The notes: generated by a model from the sequence alone, not told the origin. Shown: positions 2,384 to 27,549, numbered from the stretch's first letter. The stretch is DNA of 64,000 nt from an uncultured Holophaga sp. (GCA_963664825.1 OY761614.1:2720001-2784000), one strand, 5' to 3'. Program-made: numbers and translations.

Positions 2384-3184
2384 TCATTCCTGGGCGCTGG
2401 GTTCACCCCAGGGGCTGGGCTCCCCGATGCCCCAGCGGGATTGGTACCAGACCTTCTCGAGGCATAGCCCGTGAGGCGGCGCCGTGAACCCCGCTTGCGA
2501 ACGGTCCCGGGCCGCCAGGATGTCGGGCAGGGCCTCGGCTGGAATGCGCCCCTTGCCGATATCGACCAGGGTCCCGGCCATGATGCGGACCTGGTGCATG
2601 AGGAAGCGATTGCCCTCGAAGACCAGATCCACGGCGGTTCCGTGCGCCTCCACATCGATCCTGTAGATATGGCGGATGGGGCTTTTCGCGGCGCATTCCT
2701 GGTGACGGAAACTGGAGAAGTCGTGTTCTCCGAGGAGGGCCTGGGCCGCCCTGGCCATGAGGCCGAGATCCAGGGGGGTCCTGCCGAAGACATGCCAGCG
2801 GCGATCCCGTTCGAAGGGATCCTCCGCGGGCCCTTCGTCCAGGCCATAGACATAGCGTTTGGCGAGCGCGTGGTGGCGGGGCCAGAAGGCTTCGTCCACG
2901 GGAAAGGCCGCCATCACGCGCACATCCGCAGGCAGATGCGCGTTGAGCGCGGCCAGCAGGCGATAGGGCTCCCAGGATCGGGTCAGGCGGATCAGCACGC
3001 CCTGGGCCTTGGCATGCACGCCAGCATCCGTCCGGCCCGTGCCCTGGGGCATGGGGGCGGGGGGATCGAAGGCCTGTAGCGCCTTCCAGAGCTCCGCCTG
3101 GACGCTGCGGGCGGAAGTCTGGATCTGCCAGCCATGGAAATCGGTGCCGATATAGGCCAGTCGAAGGAAGAAGGGGAAGGGCAT
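2384..3184 (-). CDS. truA: tRNA pseudouridine(38-40) synthase TruA
   Basis: AYIGTDFHGWQ, GRTDAGVHA, GEHDFSSF, FLMHQVRIM, TAPPHGL. Confidence 0.96.
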   Translation of the reverse strand: MPFPFFLRLAYIGTDFHGWQIQTSARSVQAELWKALQAFDPPAPMPQGTGRTDAGVHAKAQGVLIRLTRSWEPYRLLAALNAHLPADVRVMAAFPVDEAFWPRHHALAKRYVYGLDEGPAEDPFERDRRWHVFGRTPLDLGLMARAAQALLGEHDFSSFRHQECAAKSPIRHIYRIDVEAHGTAVDLVFEGNRFLMHQVRIMAGTLVDIGKGRIPAEALPDILAARDRSQAGFTAPPHGLCLEKVWYQSRWGIGEPSPWGEPSAQE

Positions 3185-3374
3185 GGCTCCAGTGTAGGGC
3201 TTTCGGATGGGGGTGGAGGGGCTCCGATCCCCCGGGATGGGGCCTTGGGCTCTCCTCTCGGGGCGTGGGGGGGCGTTGTGGCTTAATATTCTGCTTTTCA
3301 ATGGCTTACGATGCCCTGGTGGGGGGCGTTTGGGGGGCTTATGAGGGTATGAACCCGCCAATACCGGGACTTCG

Positions 3375-3426
3375 AAAAAAAAAATATCCTGAAACCCTTG
3401 ACGACACTACTTCCCAGACCTAACCT
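3375..3426 (+). promoter_or_regulatory. sigma70-type promoter of HU gene with upstream A-tract
   Basis: TTGACG (3398-3403), 17 bp spacer, TAACCT (3421-3426). An A10 tract at 3375-3384 resembles an UP element. Confidence 0.7.
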
Positions 3427-3568
3427 GCTGAGAGTTAAGTTCCCACCCAGTATTCACGGGGATTTCAAGAGTCCTCACTCTTGAAAATCAACAGCAGCGG
3501 ATGTCTCGAAAGAGCGTCCATCCTATTTCCACTACCCTGGGACTTAGTTCCCAAATTCGGAGGTTTCA

Positions 3569-3865
3569 ATGAACAAGGCCGAACTGATCGCCGCCATCGC
3601 TGAGAAGGCTGACATCAACAAGTCCAAGTCTGCGGCTGCCCTGGACACCATGATCTCTTCCATCGGCGGCGCCCTTCGCGCTGGCGACAAGGTGACCCTG
3701 GTTGGCTTTGGCACCTTCTCCGTCGTGGCTCGTGGCCCCCGCACGGGTCGCAATCCCCGGGATGGCCAGAAGATTAAGATCGCTGCCAAGAAGGTTGCGA
3801 AGTTCAAGCCCGGCAAGAAGCTGGCTGACGACGTCAACGGCAAGGGCGCCAAGAAGAAGAAGTAG
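3569..3865 (+). CDS. hup: HU family DNA-binding protein
   Basis: MNKAELI, VTLVGFGTF, RTGRNP, KFKPGK; GGAGG RBS; Lys-rich tail. Confidence 0.97.
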   Translation: MNKAELIAAIAEKADINKSKSAAALDTMISSIGGALRAGDKVTLVGFGTFSVVARGPRTGRNPRDGQKIKIAAKKVAKFKPGKKLADDVNGKGAKKKK

Positions 3866-3884
3866 GTTTTTTCAAGCGTGATGG

Positions 3885-3916
3885 AAAGCGGCCCGCAGAT
3901 GCGGGCCGCTTTTTTA
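3885..3916 (+). terminator. Rho-independent terminator after HU
   Basis: AAAGCGGCCCGCA-GA-TGCGGGCCGCTTT followed by a T run. Confidence 0.9.
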
Positions 3917-4103
3917 ACTGAGTTATCCGATCCGGTCCGCCATATCTGAGATTACCGGTCTGCACTGAGGTTGGCCGCAAAGGCATCTCCTAAACCCTTG
4001 CCCGCCTCCAAGGGGGTCGAAATTCATTCTCCTGCCCTCGAAGTCGATGTGGATCCCGTGGGACTTTCGGCGAGAATGGCTAGGGTATGGCGAAGGAGTC
4101 GGC

Positions 4104-4658
4104 ATGAAGAAGAAGCTCATGATGGGAGGGATTGGCCTGCTGCTGCTGGCGGTCCTGGGGCTGGGGGGCAAGTTCCTCTTTAAGAAATTCTTCGCGAAAC
4201 CGGCGGTCCAGGTCGATCCCAAGCTCGATGAAGCCGCCCAGGCCGCCAAGGATGAAGAGGATGAACCGGCCGGGGAGGGCGGGGAAGGAGCGGCTGGACC
4301 CGCCGTCATGGTCTATCCGAAGATCGTCAACCTGGATCGCAAGAACGCCTACCTCAAGGTGGAACTGCACATCATCTTCCGGGACCCGGAACTCGGGAAG
4401 GCGGCCACCAGCGAAAAACCCACTCCGGAGGCCAGCGAGATCCGCGCGATCCTGCTGGAAATGCTCTCGGGCAAGACGCTGGAGGAGGCTTCGGATCTGG
4501 AAACCCGCGAACTGGTTCGTCAGGCGATCAAGGATAAGCTCAACGAGAAGTTCGCCCCCAAGCCTCCCAAACCCGGCGAGAAGGAAGACCCCAAACACAA
4601 GAAACCCAGGAAGCCCATCAAGGATGTCCTGGTGGTGGATTGGGCCATCTCGGCCTGA
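4104..4658 (+). CDS. fliL: FliL-like flagellar basal-body-associated membrane protein
   Basis: N-terminal K-rich segment plus a single TM helix, then IVNL...YLKVEL, IRAILLEMLSGKT, IKDVLV. AAGGAG RBS. Confidence 0.75.
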   Translation: MKKKLMMGGIGLLLLAVLGLGGKFLFKKFFAKPAVQVDPKLDEAAQAAKDEEDEPAGEGGEGAAGPAVMVYPKIVNLDRKNAYLKVELHIIFRDPELGKAATSEKPTPEASEIRAILLEMLSGKTLEEASDLETRELVRQAIKDKLNEKFAPKPPKPGEKEDPKHKKPRKPIKDVLVVDWAISA

Positions 4659-4670
4659 AGGCTGTCCCCG

Positions 4671-4686
4671 TGGCACGGGCGTTGCT
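4671..4686 (+). promoter_or_regulatory. sigma54 (-24/-12) promoter
   Basis: TGGCACGGGCGTTGCT exactly matches TGGCACG-N4-TTGCW. It is intergenic, about 60 bp upstream of the fliN-like ORF. Confidence 0.75.
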
Positions 4687-4747
4687 TCTTTCGCTCCCTG
4701 CGGTCCATCCCATGACCCTCGGCATCATCCATTAGAGGACTCCCCTC

Positions 4748-5056
4748 TTGGCCAACAAGCGCATCGACAAGCCCGACACGGATCGCGTTCTCAGTTTCGA
4801 GAGCGTGATCGCCGAGCTCATGCCTTTCATCGACACGCCCTTCGCCCTGGAAATCCAGCTCGGCAAGGCCCGGATGTCCATCCGGGATCTCCTGGAACTG
4901 GATCTGGGCAGCATCGTGGAACTCAAGAAGAGCGCCGGTGAACCCATGGATGTGCTGAGCAAGGGCCGAGTGCTCATGCGGGGGGAAGTGACGGTGCTGG
5001 AGGATTCCCTGGGCCTTCGCATCGTGGAGATCGTCGATCCCAGCCGGAAGGTATGA
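4748..5056 (+). CDS. fliN: FliN/SpoA-family motor switch protein
   Basis: LGKARMSIRDLLELDLGSIVELKKSAGEPMDV...GEVTV...GLRIVEI. TTG start after GAGG. Confidence 0.85.
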   Translation: MANKRIDKPDTDRVLSFESVIAELMPFIDTPFALEIQLGKARMSIRDLLELDLGSIVELKKSAGEPMDVLSKGRVLMRGEVTVLEDSLGLRIVEIVDPSRKV

Positions 5057-5087: not shown

Positions 5088-5900
5088 ATGCTCGTCGACT
5101 CCGATTCCACCCCCCAGGTTCCAGTGGCCCTCTGTCTCGGGGGCATGGATCCCTCTGCGGGAGCCGGCCTGCTGCGGGATGCCCTCACCCTTTCTCGCCT
5201 GGGCGTCCATCCCATGGTCGTGAGTACGGCCGAGACGATCCAGAATGGCGTCGCCTGCCTGGAGATCACGGGGCCTACTCTGAATCCGGTCCTCCGTTTG
5301 GAATCCCTCCGGCCCCATCTGCGGGGCCTCTGGGGAGTCAAACTGGGCCTCAGTGCCCTGGAGATGCCTGTCCTGGGAGAGTTGATGACACGGTTGGACG
5401 AGCTCGATCCCCGCTACCGCATCTGGGATCCCATCCAGGCACCCACCTCCGGGGTCGGCCTCCATGACGGCGAGGCCTTGCGGCGCATGGCGCGAGCCGT
5501 CCTGAAGGGGGGGCATTGGGTGGTGAGTCCGAACCGAATGGAGGCCGCTTCCTTCGGGGGGCTGGCGCCGGAGGCTACCCCGGGCGCCTTGGCCGAGGCC
5601 TTCCTGGAGGCGGGGGCCCGGGCCGTCTGGCTCAAGGGAGGCCATTCCCAGGGGGACCTGGTCGAGGATTTCTGGGTCGATGCCCAGGGGGCCCGTGGCC
5701 TGGGTGCCCATCGGCGCCTGCCGGGCGAGCGGCGGGGTACGGGTTGCACGGTGGCCTCGGCCTGGCTCGGCTTCCGCCTGGGGGGCCTGGAGGACATGGC
5801 CGCCGCCCAGCGGGCCTCGGCCTGGCTCCGGGAACACTGGGATCGGGCCTTCACGCCTGGGGGCAGCGGTCGCCCCCTCTTCGCGCCGGAGCAGGCATGA
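5088..5900 (+). CDS. thiD: Hydroxymethylpyrimidine/phosphomethylpyrimidine kinase (ThiD-like)
   Basis: GGMDPSAGAGLLRD, SPNRMEA, LKGGH, RGTGCT. Confidence 0.8.
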   Translation: MLVDSDSTPQVPVALCLGGMDPSAGAGLLRDALTLSRLGVHPMVVSTAETIQNGVACLEITGPTLNPVLRLESLRPHLRGLWGVKLGLSALEMPVLGELMTRLDELDPRYRIWDPIQAPTSGVGLHDGEALRRMARAVLKGGHWVVSPNRMEAASFGGLAPEATPGALAEAFLEAGARAVWLKGGHSQGDLVEDFWVDAQGARGLGAHRRLPGERRGTGCTVASAWLGFRLGGLEDMAAAQRASAWLREHWDRAFTPGGSGRPLFAPEQA

Positions 5901-7084
5901 GAATCCACGAGGGGCGAGGCTTCCTGCTGCGCACGGGTCAGGACGGGCCCCTCAAGGGCTGGCTCTCCCTGCGCCGCCTGGACGCCTGTGTCTCCGTGCG
6001 GGAGGCCCCCTGGATGGCGTTGCAGGCCCTGGCGTGTGCCGCCTGCGCCTTCCCGGGAGGGCTGGCCCTCCTGTGGGACGCGCCCTTCGCCTGGCTGGAC
6101 GGCCTTCCCCCCGAGAGCCGCCGCGCATTCTTCGGCGTGCTGGCCCTCATGCCGGGAATCGAAGTCCATCTGCGGGAGGAGGGTTTCGAGGAATGGCTCG
6201 ATAGGCCCATCCCGGGCTGGTTCCACGGGCCGAATGCTCCCACCGGGCGCCTGGGGCAACTCTGGCGCCAGGGCTGGTTCGGATGGGTGCCCGAGGGGAG
6301 ACCGGGCTGGTCCCTGCCGGGGCTGGGAGCGGCCAGTTCGGAGGAAGGGGAACCCCTTTCCGGAAGCCTCTGGGGCGAACTCGTGCTTCCCCTAGGAGCC
6401 CTGGGGGAGGTAGGCCTGGAGGAGGTCGCCACGCTGATGGCGGATGCGCAGGCACGGCTGGAATGGGATTTCAGCCTGCGGCTCTCCTCCGGCGCTTGGC
6501 CCGAGGCCTTTCCCTTCCAGCGCCGCAGGGCGGGTTGGCGCATCGCCCTCCTCGGGGGGAGGGAATTCGAATTGGGGAGTGGCGCCTGGGAGGTGGTCGC
6601 CGACCAGGTATCGGGCCTCTTGGAGGGCCTGAGAGGGGCCCTTCGTTGTCCGGTCTGGGCGGGGAGTTGCCATGATTCCGAACTGGCTTCCCGTCTCGGC
6701 CATCAGGCCATGGGCGAAGGGATGCCCTGGCGGGCCAGCCTGCCCATGCCGCCCCTGGCTCCGCTCTTTTCGCCGGGTTTTGGCACCGATCCCCGGGAGC
6801 CCTCCTCCCTGGAAGGCCGGGCCCGCTATCCGGCCCCTCTCGCAGGCCTCCTGGCCCATCCTCCTGCGGCCTATCTGCGGGTGCCCAGTGCGCCCCAGGA
6901 GGGGGCTGCCCTGGCCTTCCTCCGGGGCCTGGACGGGCCCCCGGCCATCCGCTGGATGCCTCCGGAGGTGCCGCCGCCGGGGCCCTTCAGCGCCGAACGC
7001 CCCTGGCCCCAGGCCAGTGCCTTTCCTCCCTTGATGGATGTAACCCAGGCCCTACAGCCGGGCCTCTTCGACGATCTGGAGTAG
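5897..7084 (+). CDS. Hypothetical protein; possible degenerate class III RNR (NrdD)-like fold
   Basis: The ATG overlaps the thiD stop (ATGA) and the stop is 2 nt before the peptidase start. Fold assignment is by eye only (see findings). Confidence 0.6.
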   Translation: MRIHEGRGFLLRTGQDGPLKGWLSLRRLDACVSVREAPWMALQALACAACAFPGGLALLWDAPFAWLDGLPPESRRAFFGVLALMPGIEVHLREEGFEEWLDRPIPGWFHGPNAPTGRLGQLWRQGWFGWVPEGRPGWSLPGLGAASSEEGEPLSGSLWGELVLPLGALGEVGLEEVATLMADAQARLEWDFSLRLSSGAWPEAFPFQRRRAGWRIALLGGREFELGSGAWEVVADQVSGLLEGLRGALRCPVWAGSCHDSELASRLGHQAMGEGMPWRASLPMPPLAPLFSPGFGTDPREPSSLEGRARYPAPLAGLLAHPPAAYLRVPSAPQEGAALAFLRGLDGPPAIRWMPPEVPPPGPFSAERPWPQASAFPPLMDVTQALQPGLFDDLE

Positions 7085-7086
7085 CC

Positions 7087-8274
7087 ATGGATATGGTGGA
7101 AGGTAAATTGGCCCAAGTGCCAGAGATCCTCAAGGAGACGGGCCTCGACGCCTGGCTCCTCTTCGCCCGGGAAACCCATACCCTCCACGATCCCTGCTTC
7201 GATCTGGTGGTGGGGGGGGACGTCACCTGGCAATCGGCCTTCCTGCTCACCAGGCAGGGGGACCGCATCGCCATCGTGGGTACCCTGGACCAAGCCGCCA
7301 TCGCGATGCGGGGCCACTACCGCGAATTGATCGGCTACGTGAGCGGCATCTCCGAAGAGCTCCGCAAGACCTTAACCCGCCTGGATCCCCGGCGTATCGC
7401 CATCAACTTCAGCCTCGACGACACCATGTCGGATGGCATGACCCATGGCATGTACCTGACCCTCATGAAGGCCCTGGAAGGCACGCCCTTTGGGGCTCGC
7501 CTGGAATCCAGCGATCGCGTGATCTCGGCCCTGCGGGGCCGCAAGTCCGCCCAGGAGCGCGAGCGCATCCGCGCTGCCTGCGTCGATACGGAGGCCATCT
7601 TCGAGCGCCTGACGCCGCGCCTTCACGCGGGCCTCACCGAGAAACAGGTGGCGGCCATGATTGGAGAGGAGATGGGCAAAGTGCCAGGCCTCAGCCTGGC
7701 CTGGGACCCGGATCACTGCCCGGCGGTCTTCACGGGACCCGAGAGCGCTGGCGCCCACGCGGGGCCCACGGACCGGGTCATCGAGCCGGGCCACATCATG
7801 AACGTGGATTTCGGCGTGAAGAAGGACGATTACTGCTCGGATCTCCAGCGCACCTGGTACTTCCTGCGCCCGGGTGAGATCGCCGCGCCATCCTCCGTGC
7901 AGCGGGGTTTCGAGACCATCGTGGAATCCATTCAGGCCGCGGCGGCCTTCCTGCGACCGGGGGTCACGGGCAGCGACGTGGATGCGGTGTCCCGGAACTA
8001 CATCACCGGGCGCGGCTACCAGGAATTCCCTCACGCCCTCGGGCACCAGGTGGGGCGCACGGCCCACGATGGCGCGGGCCTCCTCTGCCCCCACTGGGAG
8101 CGCTATGGGACCCTGCCGGACCTGCCTGTGGAGAAGGACCAGTGCTACACCCTGGAACCCCGCCTCACCGTGGAAGGCCACGGCATCGCCACCTGCGAGG
8201 AGATCGTGGCTGTCACCGAGGATGGCTGCGAGTGGCTCTCCAGGCCCCAGGGCCAGCTCTACTTGGTGGGCTAG
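7087..8274 (+). CDS. M24 family Xaa-Pro peptidase
   Basis: VDFG..DYCSDLQRT, HALGHQVG..HD, TLEP, CEE metal ligands. Confidence 0.92.
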   Translation: MDMVEGKLAQVPEILKETGLDAWLLFARETHTLHDPCFDLVVGGDVTWQSAFLLTRQGDRIAIVGTLDQAAIAMRGHYRELIGYVSGISEELRKTLTRLDPRRIAINFSLDDTMSDGMTHGMYLTLMKALEGTPFGARLESSDRVISALRGRKSAQERERIRAACVDTEAIFERLTPRLHAGLTEKQVAAMIGEEMGKVPGLSLAWDPDHCPAVFTGPESAGAHAGPTDRVIEPGHIMNVDFGVKKDDYCSDLQRTWYFLRPGEIAAPSSVQRGFETIVESIQAAAAFLRPGVTGSDVDAVSRNYITGRGYQEFPHALGHQVGRTAHDGAGLLCPHWERYGTLPDLPVEKDQCYTLEPRLTVEGHGIATCEEIVAVTEDGCEWLSRPQGQLYLVG

Positions 8275-8318: not shown

Positions 8319-9062
8319 CTAGCCTTGGCGGGTGGGGTGGCCTTTCCCTCGGAGGGTGGAGCCTCTCCGGCCTCCCCCGGAAAAGATATCTTCGAATTGG
8401 CGGATGGCGATGGGGTCCCCTTCCCGGCGGAGGGGACCCCGGAATTCCAGGGGATCGATCTGGGCGAATTCCCCGCCCTTGGCGATGTTATCGGTGATGT
8501 AGGCGATGAATTCCTGTTGGCGGTGGCGGATGTAACCCCGGAAGGGCCTGGAGATGAGGCTCAGGAGGGCCGAATCCAGGGCGGTCCAGGTCTGGAGGTG
8601 GCTCTCAAAGCCCTTGGGCCCCTCCCAATAGCGGTAGATGACGACCATCCTGGCCCCGACGGCGAAGGGATTGCTCATGCGGCCCTTCTCGACTCGGCCA
8701 TCGACCAGGTAGACCCTCAGGCCCGGCTGCCGGTGGGCCAGGGTGAGGGTGCCTCGGAGGCCGCGCCCATCATCGATGGTCAGCTGGCCGCTGGGCAATT
8801 CGAAGGCGTAGAGCCCCGGCGCGAACTGGCAGTGCCGCCACATGGCCGCCGCCACCCGGGGATGATCGAAGAGCTTTTCCATGGTGGCCAGGCGGACCCG
8901 CACGGGCGCGGTGCGGGTCTCGAAGTTGAAGTCCGGCTTATGCAGGATGCTCTCGGCCCAGGCGCGGTGCTGGGGGCTCATGTCGTTGAGGGGCACCTGG
9001 GCCCCCAAACTGCCAGACAAGAGCAGAAATCCGAGCATCCATGGTGCGCGACGGAATCCCAT
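8319..9062 (-). CDS. Exported hypothetical protein
   Basis: Signal peptide (MGFRR...LLLSGSLGA/Q); lies co-directional at the end of the minus-strand operon. Confidence 0.7.
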   Translation of the reverse strand: MGFRRAPWMLGFLLLSGSLGAQVPLNDMSPQHRAWAESILHKPDFNFETRTAPVRVRLATMEKLFDHPRVAAAMWRHCQFAPGLYAFELPSGQLTIDDGRGLRGTLTLAHRQPGLRVYLVDGRVEKGRMSNPFAVGARMVVIYRYWEGPKGFESHLQTWTALDSALLSLISRPFRGYIRHRQQEFIAYITDNIAKGGEFAQIDPLEFRGPLRREGDPIAIRQFEDIFSGGGRRGSTLRGKGHPTRQG

Positions 9063-22746: not shown

Positions 22747-23751
22747 CTAAAGTGAGTTCTTGACCTTGCGCAGTGTCTGCAGGGCTCCGGCGAGGCCTTC
22801 GTGGAGGGGCTTGATCTCTTCAGCCTTCCACTGGGCCTTGGGCTTGCGCACGAAGCTGGTCTTGTCCTGGCGGTTATCGAAGCGGGCGGCGGGCAGGTAG
22901 TACACCTTCGTCACGAAGCGCTCGCCTTCGGCCACGACGCGCTCCACCTTGACGGTGTCGGGCTTATCGGACTGCTCCATGAGCCAGGCCATATCGTCGG
23001 TGCCGTAGTGGGCCAGCATCACTTCCATGGGCACGCTGTGGTTCAGGATGCTGCCCTGGGCGTTGGGCAGGCCGCGTTCGATGTTCTTGCGGCGGCTCTC
23101 GCAGGGGTCCACCCACACGTAGAGGATGGAGGACTTCTCCAGGATCTGCGGGCTGAGCTGTTGGAAGGCGCTCCAGTAGCCGTGGGGCGGGCAGATGGGG
23201 AAGGCGCTGCCATTGGGTCCACCGCGGGCGCACTCGATGACGATGGTCTTGCCCGTGCGGTCCTGACTGCACGTGGCGTTGAGCACGTCCAACTCGTGCC
23301 GGGCCTCGGCCTCGATGGCTTCGGCCACCTTCCGGCGGATGCCGTAGGGGACCTGGCCCATGGATTCGGGCAGGCCCACCTTGGCGCAGGCGGCGTCCAT
23401 GCGGTCCATGAGGGCCTGGGCGGGGCTGAGGGGATTGAAGGTGCGGCGGTGCACGAGGTTGTCGTAATCCTCGTTGAGCAACTCGATGAGGACGGCCCAG
23501 GTCCAATCGTCCTGGAAGGGGCGGGTGGGGCCCTTGTAGTAGACGTCGTGCCAGCCGTTGGCCCTCAGCTCGTCATCGATGCGATGCATCATGTGGACGT
23601 AGGGATAGTCGTCCAGCTGGACCGTGGGCCCCATGGCCATCTCCTGGACACACTGCTCCGGCGTCAGGCTGGACATGTAGGTGCGGGTCTCGGATTTGCC
23701 CGAGGCCGGCAGGGAGAAGATGAGGACGGTATCGAGGATCTGGGTGGCCAT
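22747..23751 (-). CDS. Hypothetical P-loop-like (nucleotide kinase-like) protein
   Basis: The true start appears to be MATQILD after an AAGGA RBS. It has an N-terminal LPASGKS motif and strongly biased codons. Confidence 0.7.
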   Translation of the reverse strand: MATQILDTVLIFSLPASGKSETRTYMSSLTPEQCVQEMAMGPTVQLDDYPYVHMMHRIDDELRANGWHDVYYKGPTRPFQDDWTWAVLIELLNEDYDNLVHRRTFNPLSPAQALMDRMDAACAKVGLPESMGQVPYGIRRKVAEAIEAEARHELDVLNATCSQDRTGKTIVIECARGGPNGSAFPICPPHGYWSAFQQLSPQILEKSSILYVWVDPCESRRKNIERGLPNAQGSILNHSVPMEVMLAHYGTDDMAWLMEQSDKPDTVKVERVVAEGERFVTKVYYLPAARFDNRQDKTSFVRKPKAQWKAEEIKPLHEGLAGALQTLRKVKNSL

Positions 23752-23916
23752 CTGTTCCTTTCTCAATATGCAACGCTCCAGCTTCCCATGGGAGTCCATG
23801 GAGGACAGCATGGAATTTTCAGTACCGATCAAAAAAATGTCTATTGCGGCCCTCGGCCCAGACAGGGCGTCTGTTCGGCCTTCTGGGCCCGGGTTGCCGC
23901 TATTCTGAAGGGTCCG

Positions 23917-25656
23917 ATGCGAGACCGCGAACTCGTCCAGCGCGTGAAAGACGCGACCGATCTGGTGGCCCTGGTGGGCCAGGCGGTGAAGCTGCGCAAG
24001 CAGGGCAGTGCCTGGGTGGGGCTCTGTCCCTTCCATTCGGAGCGCAGCCCCAGCTTCCAGGTGGTGGGGGACCGCGGCTTCTACCACTGCTTCGGATGCG
24101 CCAAGCACGGAGATGCCTTCACCTGGCTGCAGGAGCGGGAGGGCCTGACCTTCCCCGAGGCCCTCGAACAGCTGGCCCGGCAGGCCGGGATCGAAATGCC
24201 CAAGGTGCGTGAGCGCTCGGCTTCCGAGATGGATCTGGAAGAGCGGATGCGCGCCGCCCTGGATTCGGCTCAGGCCTACTATCAGGCCCGGCTCCGGGAA
24301 ACGCCCAAGGCCCTCGAATACCTGAACAAGCGCGGCATCCGGGAATCCTTCATTTCGGAGGCGGGCTTCGGCTTCGCGCCGGAGGGATGGGAGAACCTCG
24401 TGGGGCACCTGCGCAAGGCGGGCTTCTCCAACGAGCTCATCGAACAGACGGGGCTGGCGGGGCGCAGCGAGCGCGGCACCCTCATCGATTTCCTCCGCAA
24501 CCGCCTCACCATCCCCATCCACGATGGCCGGGGACGCCTCATCGCCTTCGGTGGGCGGGCCTTCGGCGAGGACAAGCCCAAGTATCTGAACACCCGCGAG
24601 ACGCCCCTCTTCAGTAAGGGCTCCGTGCTCTTCGGGTTCAATCGGGCCAAGGGCGGCTTCAAGGAGGGGGCCCTGGTGGTGGAGGGCTACTTCGATGTGC
24701 TCCAGCTCCATCAGGACGGCGTGAACCAGGCCGTGGCCCCCCTGGGTACGGCGCTCACCGAGAACCATCTCCAGATGCTGCACCGCTTCACCAAGCGGCT
24801 GGTGCTCTGCTTCGACGGGGACGCCGCGGGCATTCGGGCCATGGAGAAGGGCTTGAGGCTGGCGTTGCCCGCGGGCTTCGACGTGAGGCTCCTGCTGCTG
24901 CCCATGGGCGAGGATCCCGACACCTGGTGTCTGAAACTGGGGGCCGAGGCCTTCCGGGAATTAGTGCGGAACGCGCCGGACTGGACGAGCTTCGTCATCA
25001 ACCGGGCCCTCGATGGCAAGGATGTGCGGCGCATTCCCGACCGCATGGCCGCCCTGCGGGAGCTGGCGGAATTCCTGGGTTTCCTGCCCAATACGCCGGA
25101 ACGTCGGGAACTCTTCGCGAGCCTGTCCCACCAGCTCCAGATCCCCCTCTCGGAGTTCGATCATGCGGTGAAGAGCCGGACCCTGGTTCCGGAGCGACCC
25201 TCGGAGGAACCCTCCCCCAGTGCTGTGGTGGAGATCGATGATCTGCTCCGCCCCTTCCTGGCCCTCTGCATGGATCCGGGGGTGCGCGCGAGGATGAGTG
25301 AGCTGCCCTTCGCCTGGTGGGAGAGCCTCACCGGAGCGCCCCTGTTGCAGTGCCTGTTGGATGCCGAGGGCGAGGATGACCGCATCCCGGAAGGTGCCCT
25401 GGCCGCCATTCGCCATGCCCAGGCAGCCTGGGCATCCAAGGACGAATCGGAACTCGCCCCGGAGGGCGCCATCCAAAATCTGGAAGCGGCCTACGTGCAG
25501 CGTGAGATCCAGGCCCTTACGCGCCAAATTCAAGCTCCGGCCACGTTGGCCGATCCAATTTACCTAGGGCAGATCCAATCACGGCTTTCCGGGCTGCTCT
25601 CCCGTAAGTCCGAACTCAAAAAACAGCAGCGCCGGCGGCGCTTCGCTTCCCTTTAA
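23917..25656 (+). CDS. dnaG: DNA primase
   Basis: CPFH...CFGC zinc finger, KYLNT, VVEGYFDV, FDGDAAG, EDPD. Confidence 0.97.
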   Translation: MRDRELVQRVKDATDLVALVGQAVKLRKQGSAWVGLCPFHSERSPSFQVVGDRGFYHCFGCAKHGDAFTWLQEREGLTFPEALEQLARQAGIEMPKVRERSASEMDLEERMRAALDSAQAYYQARLRETPKALEYLNKRGIRESFISEAGFGFAPEGWENLVGHLRKAGFSNELIEQTGLAGRSERGTLIDFLRNRLTIPIHDGRGRLIAFGGRAFGEDKPKYLNTRETPLFSKGSVLFGFNRAKGGFKEGALVVEGYFDVLQLHQDGVNQAVAPLGTALTENHLQMLHRFTKRLVLCFDGDAAGIRAMEKGLRLALPAGFDVRLLLLPMGEDPDTWCLKLGAEAFRELVRNAPDWTSFVINRALDGKDVRRIPDRMAALRELAEFLGFLPNTPERRELFASLSHQLQIPLSEFDHAVKSRTLVPERPSEEPSPSAVVEIDDLLRPFLALCMDPGVRARMSELPFAWWESLTGAPLLQCLLDAEGEDDRIPEGALAAIRHAQAAWASKDESELAPEGAIQNLEAAYVQREIQALTRQIQAPATLADPIYLGQIQSRLSGLLSRKSELKKQQRRRRFASL

Positions 25657-25690
25657 ATCCAACGCTGCCCATTCAAAAACGCAATGGCCC

Positions 25691-25718
25691 TTGCGGGATT
25701 TTGGAAGCCTCCTATACT
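25691..25718 (+). promoter_or_regulatory. Putative sigma70 promoter upstream of rpoD
   Basis: TTGCGG, 16 bp spacer, TATACT in the dnaG-rpoD spacer. Confidence 0.45.
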
Positions 25719-25833
25719 GAAAGGTTCCGGGCGCCTTTGGCATAATGGGATTTTCTAGCCCTTCGGCCGACTCCCGATTTCCGCCCATGCCTTCCCTCCC
25801 CTAGGATCGCCCGATCCGTGGCTCTTTGAGGTC

Positions 25834-27549
25834 TTGATGGTCCCCACCCCATCCCGTGACAGTTATTTCCAGCTCACGAAAGCGCTCATCTCCCTCGGCA
25901 GGACCCGCGGCTTCATCCTGGTCGACGAGCTCAATGCGTTCCTCCCGGCCTCCGCATCCTCCCCTGAGGATGTTGAAAATGTCATCGGTATGTTCGCCAA
26001 GCTCGGTCTGGGCGTGGGTGCCACCGAAGCGGAGGCCCTGGCCAACCGGGAAATGATGGAGCCCGAGGCTCTGATTTCCGAGGCCCCGGTCAAGGTCGAC
26101 AAGGAATCCGAGGTCGATATCGATTCGCCGGATACGGACAAGTTCAATGATCCCGTGCGGATGTACCTCAAGGAGATGGGCACAGTGCCCCTCCTCAAGC
26201 GCGAGGACGAAGTCGAGATTGCCAAGCGCATCGAGACGGGCGTCCGACGGGTCATGCGTGCCCTCTCCCGCTCCCGCCTGGCTGTGAGCCTCCTTATCGA
26301 TATCGGCAGGATGCTCAAAGACAACCCCGGCAAGATCCGCGAGGTGGTGGGTCTCTCCGATGAGGTGGATGAGGACGAGGATGCCGAGAGCACCTCGGCC
26401 ACTCAGCATGTGCATCACCAGTTCGAGAAGCTGCTGGGCTACGAACAGGCCCTCCAGGATCTGATCGAGCTCAAGAACAGCGGCAAGACGCTGCCCAAGA
26501 AGCGGAAGATCGATCGGGAGATCCTCCTGGGGCGCGGCCGCGTGGCCCGTCAGGTGCGCCGCCTGGGCCTCAATAGCCTGGCTGTCACCCGCCTCATCGA
26601 CAAGATCACCCAGAACCACAAACAGGTCCGGGAAGGGGAGCGGCGCCTGCGCGAATTGGCCGATCGCCTGAAGAACCCGGCCTTCGCCAGCCTGAAGGAA
26701 AAATACGAAAAGGAGATCACTCAGATTGAATCCGAACTGGCCCGCTTCTTCGCCAAGTTCGAGACCAAGACCGAGTGGTTCCACGACGACTATGGTGCCC
26801 TCAAGGACGCGGAGAGCATTAGCCGCTCGGCCAAGGCCGAACTCACCGAGGCCAATCTCCGCCTCGTGGTCTCCATCGCCAAGCGCTACACCAACCGCGG
26901 CCTGCAGTTCCTGGATCTCATCCAGGAGGGCAATATCGGTTTGATGAAGGCCGTCGACAAGTTCGAATACAGCCGCGGCTTCAAGTTCTCGACCTACGCC
27001 ACCTGGTGGATCCGCCAGGCCATCACCCGCGCCATCGCCGATCAGGCCCGGACGATCCGCATCCCCGTGCATATGATCGAGACCATCAATAAGCTCATCC
27101 GCACACAGCGCGAACTGGTGCAGAAGCTGGGCCGCGAACCCTCCAGCGAGGAGATTGCCCACGCCATGGAGATGCCCGTCTCCAAGGTGCGCAAGGTGAT
27201 GAAGATCGCCCAGGAGCCCATCAGCCTGGAGACCCCCATCGGCGAGGAGGAGGATAGCCACCTCGGTGACTTCATCGAGGACAAGACCGTCACCTCCCCC
27301 GTGGAGCAGGTGGTCCAGCAGCGCCTCAAGGAGACCGTCAATTCCGTGCTCCAGACCCTCACCGAGCGCGAGGAGAAGGTCCTGCGCATGCGCTTCGGCG
27401 TGGGCGATGAGGCCAGCGAACACACCCTGGAAGAGGTCGGCAGCGAGTTCGCCGTCACCCGGGAGCGCATCCGCCAGATCGAGTCCAAGGCGCTGAGAAA
27501 AATTCGGCATCCGCGTTACAGCAAAACCCTGAAAGCATTCCTGGGCTAA
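25834..27549 (+). CDS. rpoD: RNA polymerase primary sigma factor
   Basis: [60 protein letters not shown]. Confidence 0.98.

Follow-up and report, generated by a model that had tools for sequence, protein, structure and literature searches.

What is the gene that lies between a thiD-like gene and an M24 peptidase gene in an uncultured Holophaga sp., and what does its product do? In the window, a stretch of 64,000 nucleotides (GCA_963664825.1 OY761614.1:2720001-2784000), this gene occupies positions 5897 to 7084 on the + strand, and its product, P0001, had been proposed to be a catalytically dead class III ribonucleotide reductase (RNR) barrel serving as a nucleotide sensor or scaffold. The predicted 395-aa ORF was borne out. 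P0001 has 85 homologues (45 to 82% identity), with dN/dS values of 0.12 to 0.18 against seven genomes of its own genus and of 0.31 to 0.42 against three genomes from other genera, a comparison in which dS seems to be saturated. The homologues and the low dN/dS indicate that the ORF is a real gene under purifying selection. We call the host family Holophagaceae after the names of the homologues, the few named ones being Holophaga. A promoter scan at the gene found none.

Family databases did not identify the protein. Neither Pfam nor NCBIfam has a family for P0001 (EAD2, at E 0.025, was under the cut-off), and when 1.84 billion representatives were searched with a profile, the 15 matches were all to the P0001 family itself or its fragments. 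No longer form of P0001 was present among 8,000 candidates, which carries little weight. Designed Kelch repeats, brought up by a search of PDB sequences, were rejected because the matches were additive, with only 3 to 5 bits per stretch.

Structure prediction was informative. An AlphaFold2 model built from 80 sequences (pLDDT 92.3, pTM 0.90) comprises ten barrel strands and a low-confidence C-terminal tail, i.e., the predicted protein has the ten-stranded alpha/beta barrel with a finger loop that characterizes the RNR/glycyl-radical superfamily. Foldseek placed class III RNRs on top (NrdD 9dau, E 8e-8). In an unbiased search of 48,161 chains, the 28 chains with Z ≥ 8 were 27 RNR/glycyl-radical enzymes and the uncharacterized SP0239; Streptococcus thermophilus NrdD came first (Z 19.6, 352 aligned residues, rmsd 3.5), and an unrelated fold first appeared at a Z of 3.7. 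Further comparisons gave Z 21.0 for Thermotoga maritima NrdD (4u3e) and 20.5 for T4 NrdD, so that NrdD ranked first in three structure searches. A viral fold library yielded RNR-like matches only. Atlas neighbors were NRDD/YjjI at 0.88 to 0.89, which we treat as a lead only, and the next match, among unnamed clusters, was at 0.78. The barrel is shared with the NrdDs of T4 (1H7B), T. maritima (4U3E), S. thermophilus (9D3X), and Prevotella copri (8P23), on which about 350 to 369 of the 395 residues superpose at 3.4 to 3.9 Å, the path of the glycyl loop included, at an identity of 5 to 12%. YjjI-type and PFL-type glycyl-radical enzymes and SP0239 (2HA9) belong to the same barrel superfamily (Z 9 to 15) but score below NrdD, and P0001 differs from the enzymes in having neither a neighboring activase nor a Cys loop.

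The NrdD-like barrel of the original prediction is thus upheld by the AlphaFold model and Foldseek. The segments that had been matched by eye to NrdD motifs are present, and the fold supports their NrdD order, but they correspond to no significant sequence match. Profile comparison, suggested as a check, does not see the relationship: hhalign probabilities were <1% in all comparisons with NrdD groups, and HMM scoring was likewise not significant. At the fold level, and on the strength of the model, P0001 is almost certainly a pseudoenzyme that derives from a class III RNR.

We then compared P0001 with NrdD feature by feature. Its alignment begins at NrdD residue ~150 to 170, and hence the ATP-cone, with the rest of the N-terminal region, and the flap are gone (domain limits as given in PMC11226230). 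The first barrel strand region, aa 17 to 24 (5945..5968, +), mapped by eye and strand order, is the site of the second catalytic Cys of NrdD; a Cys is found there in 2/80 homologues. In the finger loop between barrel strands 5 and 6 (aa 133 to 155; 6293..6361, +), S-L-P141-G142-L-G replaces xCCR/MGCR, P141 being present in 80/80 homologues and any Cys in 8/80. MGCR and xCCR are the dominant class III finger loops according to an RNR survey (10.1101/2022.04.23.489257). No Cys column reaches 90% conservation, the partly conserved residues being C251 (64/80) and C258 (45/80). The HxHD triphosphate motif is not kept, with F-L-L-R at that place as judged by eye, and the same goes for the TPAES phosphate loop and the NLP Asn, both located by eye and by secondary-structure order; this Asn is invariant in all 113 NrdD-like sequences compared. 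Two CxxC pairs occur in 0/80 family members, and RxxG[YF] is found in the last 60 residues of 0/80, in agreement with the claimed absence of the zinc site and of RxxGY. The claim that the protein is far shorter than NrdD also holds (395 aa versus ~700).

What remains is limited. G220-G221-R-E223 (6554..6565, +) corresponds to G-L-N-E, which follows barrel strand 7 in NrdD, with G220, G221, and E223 in 80/80 homologues, and R12 is conserved in the family as well. By eye, W-D-A after strand 2 is closer to the xCCR-type (SECCRL) subgroup than to host NrdD; custom global alignments assign this WDAP segment to strand 3, and we have followed the strand count of the model, which gives strand 2. Judged from its sequence, P0001 has lost both catalytic cysteines, RxxGY, the zinc site, and the ATP-cone and qualifies as a pseudoenzyme, catalytically dead because every residue of the radical chemistry is gone. 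The loss of these residues and the structure searches together back the earlier description of a dead class III RNR barrel.

One claimed loss was not confirmed. The glycyl-radical loop had been described as absent; there is instead a proline-rich remnant whose Gly coincides with the radical position or lies close to it. In the model the barrel stops at aa 355, and its last strand leads without interruption into PPP-G362-P-F (6971..6988, +), with G362 in 77/80 and P363 in 80/80 homologues. In structural superpositions, residue 363/364 of the model pairs with residue 580 of T4 NrdD and residue 363 with residue 696 of S. thermophilus NrdD; the radical glycines are G580 in T4 and Gly697 in S. thermophilus, according to PMC4493059 and PMC12662201. 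With P. copri NrdD, the alignment stops at 355/675 when the radical domain is disordered and reaches 378/735 when it is ordered. The pairing with the radical-Gly positions of T4 and S. thermophilus argues that the glycyl loop persists in the modeled P0001 as PPP-G362-P-F, the zinc domain appearing cleanly deleted.

A Gly at the radical position in 77/80 homologues raises the question of whether P0001 is still an enzyme, carrying a glycyl radical on G362 or performing a new non-radical chemistry in its barrel. The partial conservation of C251 and C258 could be read in this sense, as could T. maritima NrdD, which as crystallized has no Cys at the loop tip (PMC4493059). Nevertheless, G362 is flanked by prolines without the Arg or Tyr of RxxGY, the low frequency of Cys in the finger loop and in every other column is compounded by the lack of a zinc site, and no activase gene is nearby, NrdG2 being present in only 7/121 family genomes. 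We regard residual catalysis as highly improbable.

The distribution of the gene bears on a relationship with active RNRs. The P0001 gene is present in 109/121 family genomes and in 73/76 high-quality ones; in genus g4, the search of four genomes of ~1 Mb did not find it. Intact NrdD occurs in 7/121 genomes, after a YjjI-type enzyme in G004 had been removed from the eight NRDD matches, and NrdG2 is confined to the same seven, adjoining intact nrdD in each. Elsewhere in the host genome, nrdD-nrdG are present together with genes for a class II enzyme (NrdJ) and a normal NrdR. Of the suggested checks, the absence of an NrdG activase holds for most of the family but not for the host itself. Dead paralogues often regulate the active enzyme, and with NrdD, NrdG, and NrdJ all in the host, P0001 might be an inactive prozyme-like partner forming a heterodimer with NrdD or an adaptor for NrdJ. 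This is improbable, as no RNR gene adjoins the P0001 gene in any locus examined and the gene is far more widespread than NrdD/NrdG. In particular, because P0001 is found in 73/76 good genomes and NrdD/NrdG in only 7/121, P0001 is not an NrdD subunit. As a side observation, active NrdDs in several loci (L029, L030, L053, and L056 to L059) seem to be interrupted beyond the zinc site, their glycyl-radical part being encoded in another frame or by a short ORF.

The gene neighborhood was examined for a functional partner. The thiD-like HMP/HMP-P kinase gene (5088..5900, +) overlaps the P0001 start with its stop (ATGA) and adjoins the P0001 gene in 21/22 and 19/20 family genomes, in two overlapping sets. 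The M24 peptidase gene (7087..8274, +) begins 2 nt past the P0001 stop and is a neighbor only in part of the genus, in 6/22 genomes, all of the host's own genus, and in 1/20 of the wider set. Of the proposed translational coupling with both genes, then, the thiD side stands, while M24 is near but not overlapping; likewise, the synteny suggested as a check is conserved for thiD and only local for M24. The M24 peptidase is not part of the P0001 system. Upstream, the order truA-hup-fliL-fliN-thiD is stable across family loci; in the window this block, context only, spans 2384..5056, with truA on the − strand, and its truA and hup are presumed from recognition of their sequences. An ORF of 247 aa (8319-9062, −), without a Pfam or NCBIfam match, is convergent with the M24 gene.

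The constancy of thiD and the ATGA overlap make the co-translated ThiD-like kinase a candidate partner, P0001 forming a 1:1 complex with it in thiamine or pyrimidine salvage. A thiD gene is also adjacent to a long dead NrdD in 3/13 genomes outside the class, and the ThiD of the family is itself strongly diverged, scoring 75 bits on TIGR00097 versus ~300 for the ThiD beside dead NrdD in G157 and G152. Genus g6, on the other hand, has the P0001 gene without an adjoining thiD, the dead NrdDs of f2 and f3 and most of the distant ones (see below) have other neighbors, and the C-terminal tail of P0001 is left unexplained, which makes a ThiD complex an unlikely explanation. Both linked genes, thiD and that of P0001, appear from their sequences to be fast-evolving in Holophagaceae. 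The thiD-like gene is the only ThiD-type gene found in the host genome, and its product keeps KGGH and GTGC.

A second neighbor of potential significance is dnaG-rpoD, named from recognition of its sequence at 23917..27549 (+), 17 kb downstream in the window, which directly abuts the P0001 gene in 5/20 family loci from three genera. Head-to-head with dnaG lies a gene (22747-24783, −) for a conserved unannotated protein with a P-loop-like LPASGKSET; this protein is also encoded near the P0001 gene in loci L007, L009, and L018.

P0001 is not an isolated case, a scope that the original prediction had missed. In a search of the phylum, weak NRDD matches proved to be paralogues of 590 to 720 aa with a zinc ribbon and without the xCCR loop or radical Gly. 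The finger motif is missing in 58 relatives, among 119 listed database relatives of <860 aa plus the genome-derived entries, and the radical Gly is still present in 11/32 non-acidobacterial relatives lacking the finger motif. These dead NrdDs include those of Chloracidobacterium validum and of many Syntrophales. Table 1 of PMC12816986 lists the Chloracidobacterium protein as "NrdD-like paralog, present (no NrdG)", i.e., kept without an activase, and gives no function in that entry. Like P0001, the long dead NrdDs of Chloracidobacterium, other Acidobacteriota, and Syntrophales lack the finger-loop xCCR, and most lack the radical Gly; they differ in their length, zinc ribbon, and ATP-cone-like N terminus and in still being found by Pfam NRDD. 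The two probably belong to the same lineage. Many genes of Acidobacteriota and Syntrophales are thus annotated as "anaerobic ribonucleoside-triphosphate reductase" without the catalytic motifs.

Within the class, the short and long forms have a complementary distribution. A profile of the long dead NrdD matched 12/12 genomes of sister family f2 and 10/11 of f3 (four f2 and nine f3 proteins were inspected as sequences) and 6/67 of the host family, those six all being active nrdD loci; the short form is found in 34/36 genomes of the host family, 0/13 of f2, and 0/11 of f3. This distribution, together with the position of thiD immediately before the long dead NrdD gene in 3/13 genomes outside the class, suggests that P0001 is likely the Holophagaceae orthologue of the longer dead NrdD kept by other Acidobacteriota. 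No thiD lies within 1.5 kb of the f3 gene in 9 loci. Custom profile tests of P0001 against NrdD groups gave a z of at best 3.7 in local mode (f3, −0.7), and in global mode 2.3 to 4.3 for four dead groups versus 2.2 to 2.7 for active ones, with f3 worst at 0.8; f3, the presumed nearest relative, thus scored lowest. In a FastTree phylogeny of 113 NrdD-like proteins from which P0001 was excluded, half of the active xCCR sequences left out, and two long intein-bearing ones dropped, the dead groups formed a long-branched grade with low support.

The long forms have features of their own. The f2 protein (590 aa) combines an ATP-cone-like N terminus and zinc ribbon with a deleted finger loop, and its gene directly follows dnaJ in nine genomes, in four longer loci after hrcA-grpE-dnaK-dnaJ. 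The f3 protein (~710 aa) is very conserved, with a G-x-x-G finger loop and no conserved gene neighbors within 1.5 kb. In a type found mostly in Syntrophales and unnamed Deltaproteobacteria, RITQY or RLTKY replaces RITGY, and 54 of 56 parsed sequences are without the xCCR loop; its 80 loci contain an HD-domain gene cluster (54), grpE (31), a dnaK-like gene (29), or a SIS-domain gene (28). A link to chaperone operons is therefore common to the Syntrophales-type and f2 genes.

These relatives provide an argument for a nucleotide sensor, in which the dead barrel would bind NTP or dNTP at the former active or specificity site and signal pool size to a partner, the tail being incidental or binding something other than the clamp. 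The longer dead relatives keep the ATP-cone-like N terminus, those of Syntrophales also HxH and TPAET, and the HD-domain cluster is upstream in all 36 placeable loci; in P0001 itself, R12 and E223 are conserved. P0001, however, has neither the ATP-cone nor a DNA-binding domain, the two elements of an NrdR-like regulator, the host has a normal NrdR, and HxHD, TPAES, and the NLP Asn were not kept. A sensor is thus rather unlikely. Of the proposed sensor or scaffold role, the scaffold half fits the data and the sensor half is weakened.

A scaffold role is also consistent with a feature overlooked in the original prediction, a conserved C-terminal QxxLF motif. Q387-P-G-L390-F391 (7055..7069, +), a candidate beta-clamp-binding motif, lies beyond the NrdD-aligned region in the low-confidence tail (pLDDT 58 and 49 in the last two blocks). 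QxxLF is present in 75/80 homologues, with Q387 in 76/80 and L390 and F391 in 80/80. The motif occurs as QPGLF, QPSLF, QPRLF, QLALF, QMSLF, and others, position 3 varying, and some family members have PQSLF or RSLF instead. All nine f3 proteins inspected have Q-x-x-L-P-[W/L/F] at their C terminus, and among the long dead NrdDs a clamp-like tail is limited to this form, those of f2, Blastocatellia, and Syntrophales having none. According to 10.64898/2026.05.27.728225, clamp-binding motifs take the forms Q-phi-x-L-F and Q-phi-x-L-x-L; the residues at positions 1, 4, and 5 matter most, and the motif of Hda is QLSLPL. The P0001 and f3 tails match these two forms, and the pattern of fixed L390 and F391 with a variable middle is the one reported there for clamp motifs; position 2 in P0001 is mostly Pro, as opposed to the aliphatic residue of the consensus. 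A C-terminal QxxLF occurs in 3 of 2,466 genes called in the genome, P0001 not being among them, versus 3.7 expected, and therefore a single such motif is by itself at chance level. Based on the conservation of the sequence, the tail may well dock on the DnaN sliding clamp, encoded in the host at G000:C1:1484098-1485198, by fitting into its hydrophobic cleft.

We favor, at about an even chance and by analogy, a reading of P0001 as an ImuB-like clamp-tethered adaptor over a nucleotide sensor. P0001 would be unable to form or pass a radical, and its stable barrel, with the proline-locked finger loop and the glycyl-loop remnant, would serve as a binding platform, for which invariant Arg and Trp residues such as R209-R211, R215, and W278-R279 are a candidate surface. 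The flexible C-terminal QxxLF peptide would dock on DnaN, and the tethered protein would bring a partner or DNA contact to sites of replication or repair, as ImuB does. The loci in which dnaG-rpoD abuts the P0001 gene count for this adaptor role; against it, the most constant neighbor is thiD, not a replication gene. ImuB, according to PMC10421592, is a dead polymerase that acts as the hub of the mutasome through a clamp-binding motif, and is thus a functional model of an inactive enzyme homologue turned clamp-tethered adaptor; it differs in its Y-family polymerase fold and imuA-imuB-dnaE2 cassette and has no homology to P0001. A second parallel is the inactive RNR large subunit of the betaherpesvirus M45 type (described in 10.1101/324590), where the RNR barrel is likewise reused without catalysis and a short motif outside the barrel carries the function; this protein is viral, of class I origin, and dedicated to RHIM-based control of cell death.

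A bolder scenario, somewhat less likely than not, is that a widespread lineage of dead class III RNRs joined the replisome when the common ancestor of two Holophagae families gained the clamp tail; in Holophagaceae the protein would then have been reduced to a bare barrel that rides DnaN, working as a core factor of replication or repair and perhaps reading out the nucleotides or DNA present at the fork. A literature search, with supplements and most subscription journals outside its scope, returned no account of the P0001 family or of an RNR-derived clamp partner, and, for relatives, only the Chloracidobacterium table entry and M45. To our knowledge, RNR barrels are regarded as enzymes, and the documented cases of non-catalytic reuse come mainly from herpesviruses. 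In the present case, a dead RNR barrel is encoded by a near-core gene of a bacterial family, invisible to Pfam, NCBIfam, and profile comparison, and its relatives form a graded series in which the dismantling of the enzyme can be followed. Should the tail bind DnaN, P0001 would represent a new class of clamp partner and allow a physical connection of RNR-family proteins with the replication fork to be tested directly.

Other host proteins carry related motifs. MutL has QPHLW, and DnaE has MTSLF, without the Q. A 299-aa protein (G000:C1:85177-86076, −), which we take to be an SPL-like radical SAM enzyme, has QPSLF at its C terminus and is a second candidate clamp partner. A ScpA-like protein (G000:C1:2933641-2934420) has an internal QATLF, and a second DnaE-type polymerase, DnaE2-like and below the cut-off, is encoded at G000:C1:3158009-3160006.
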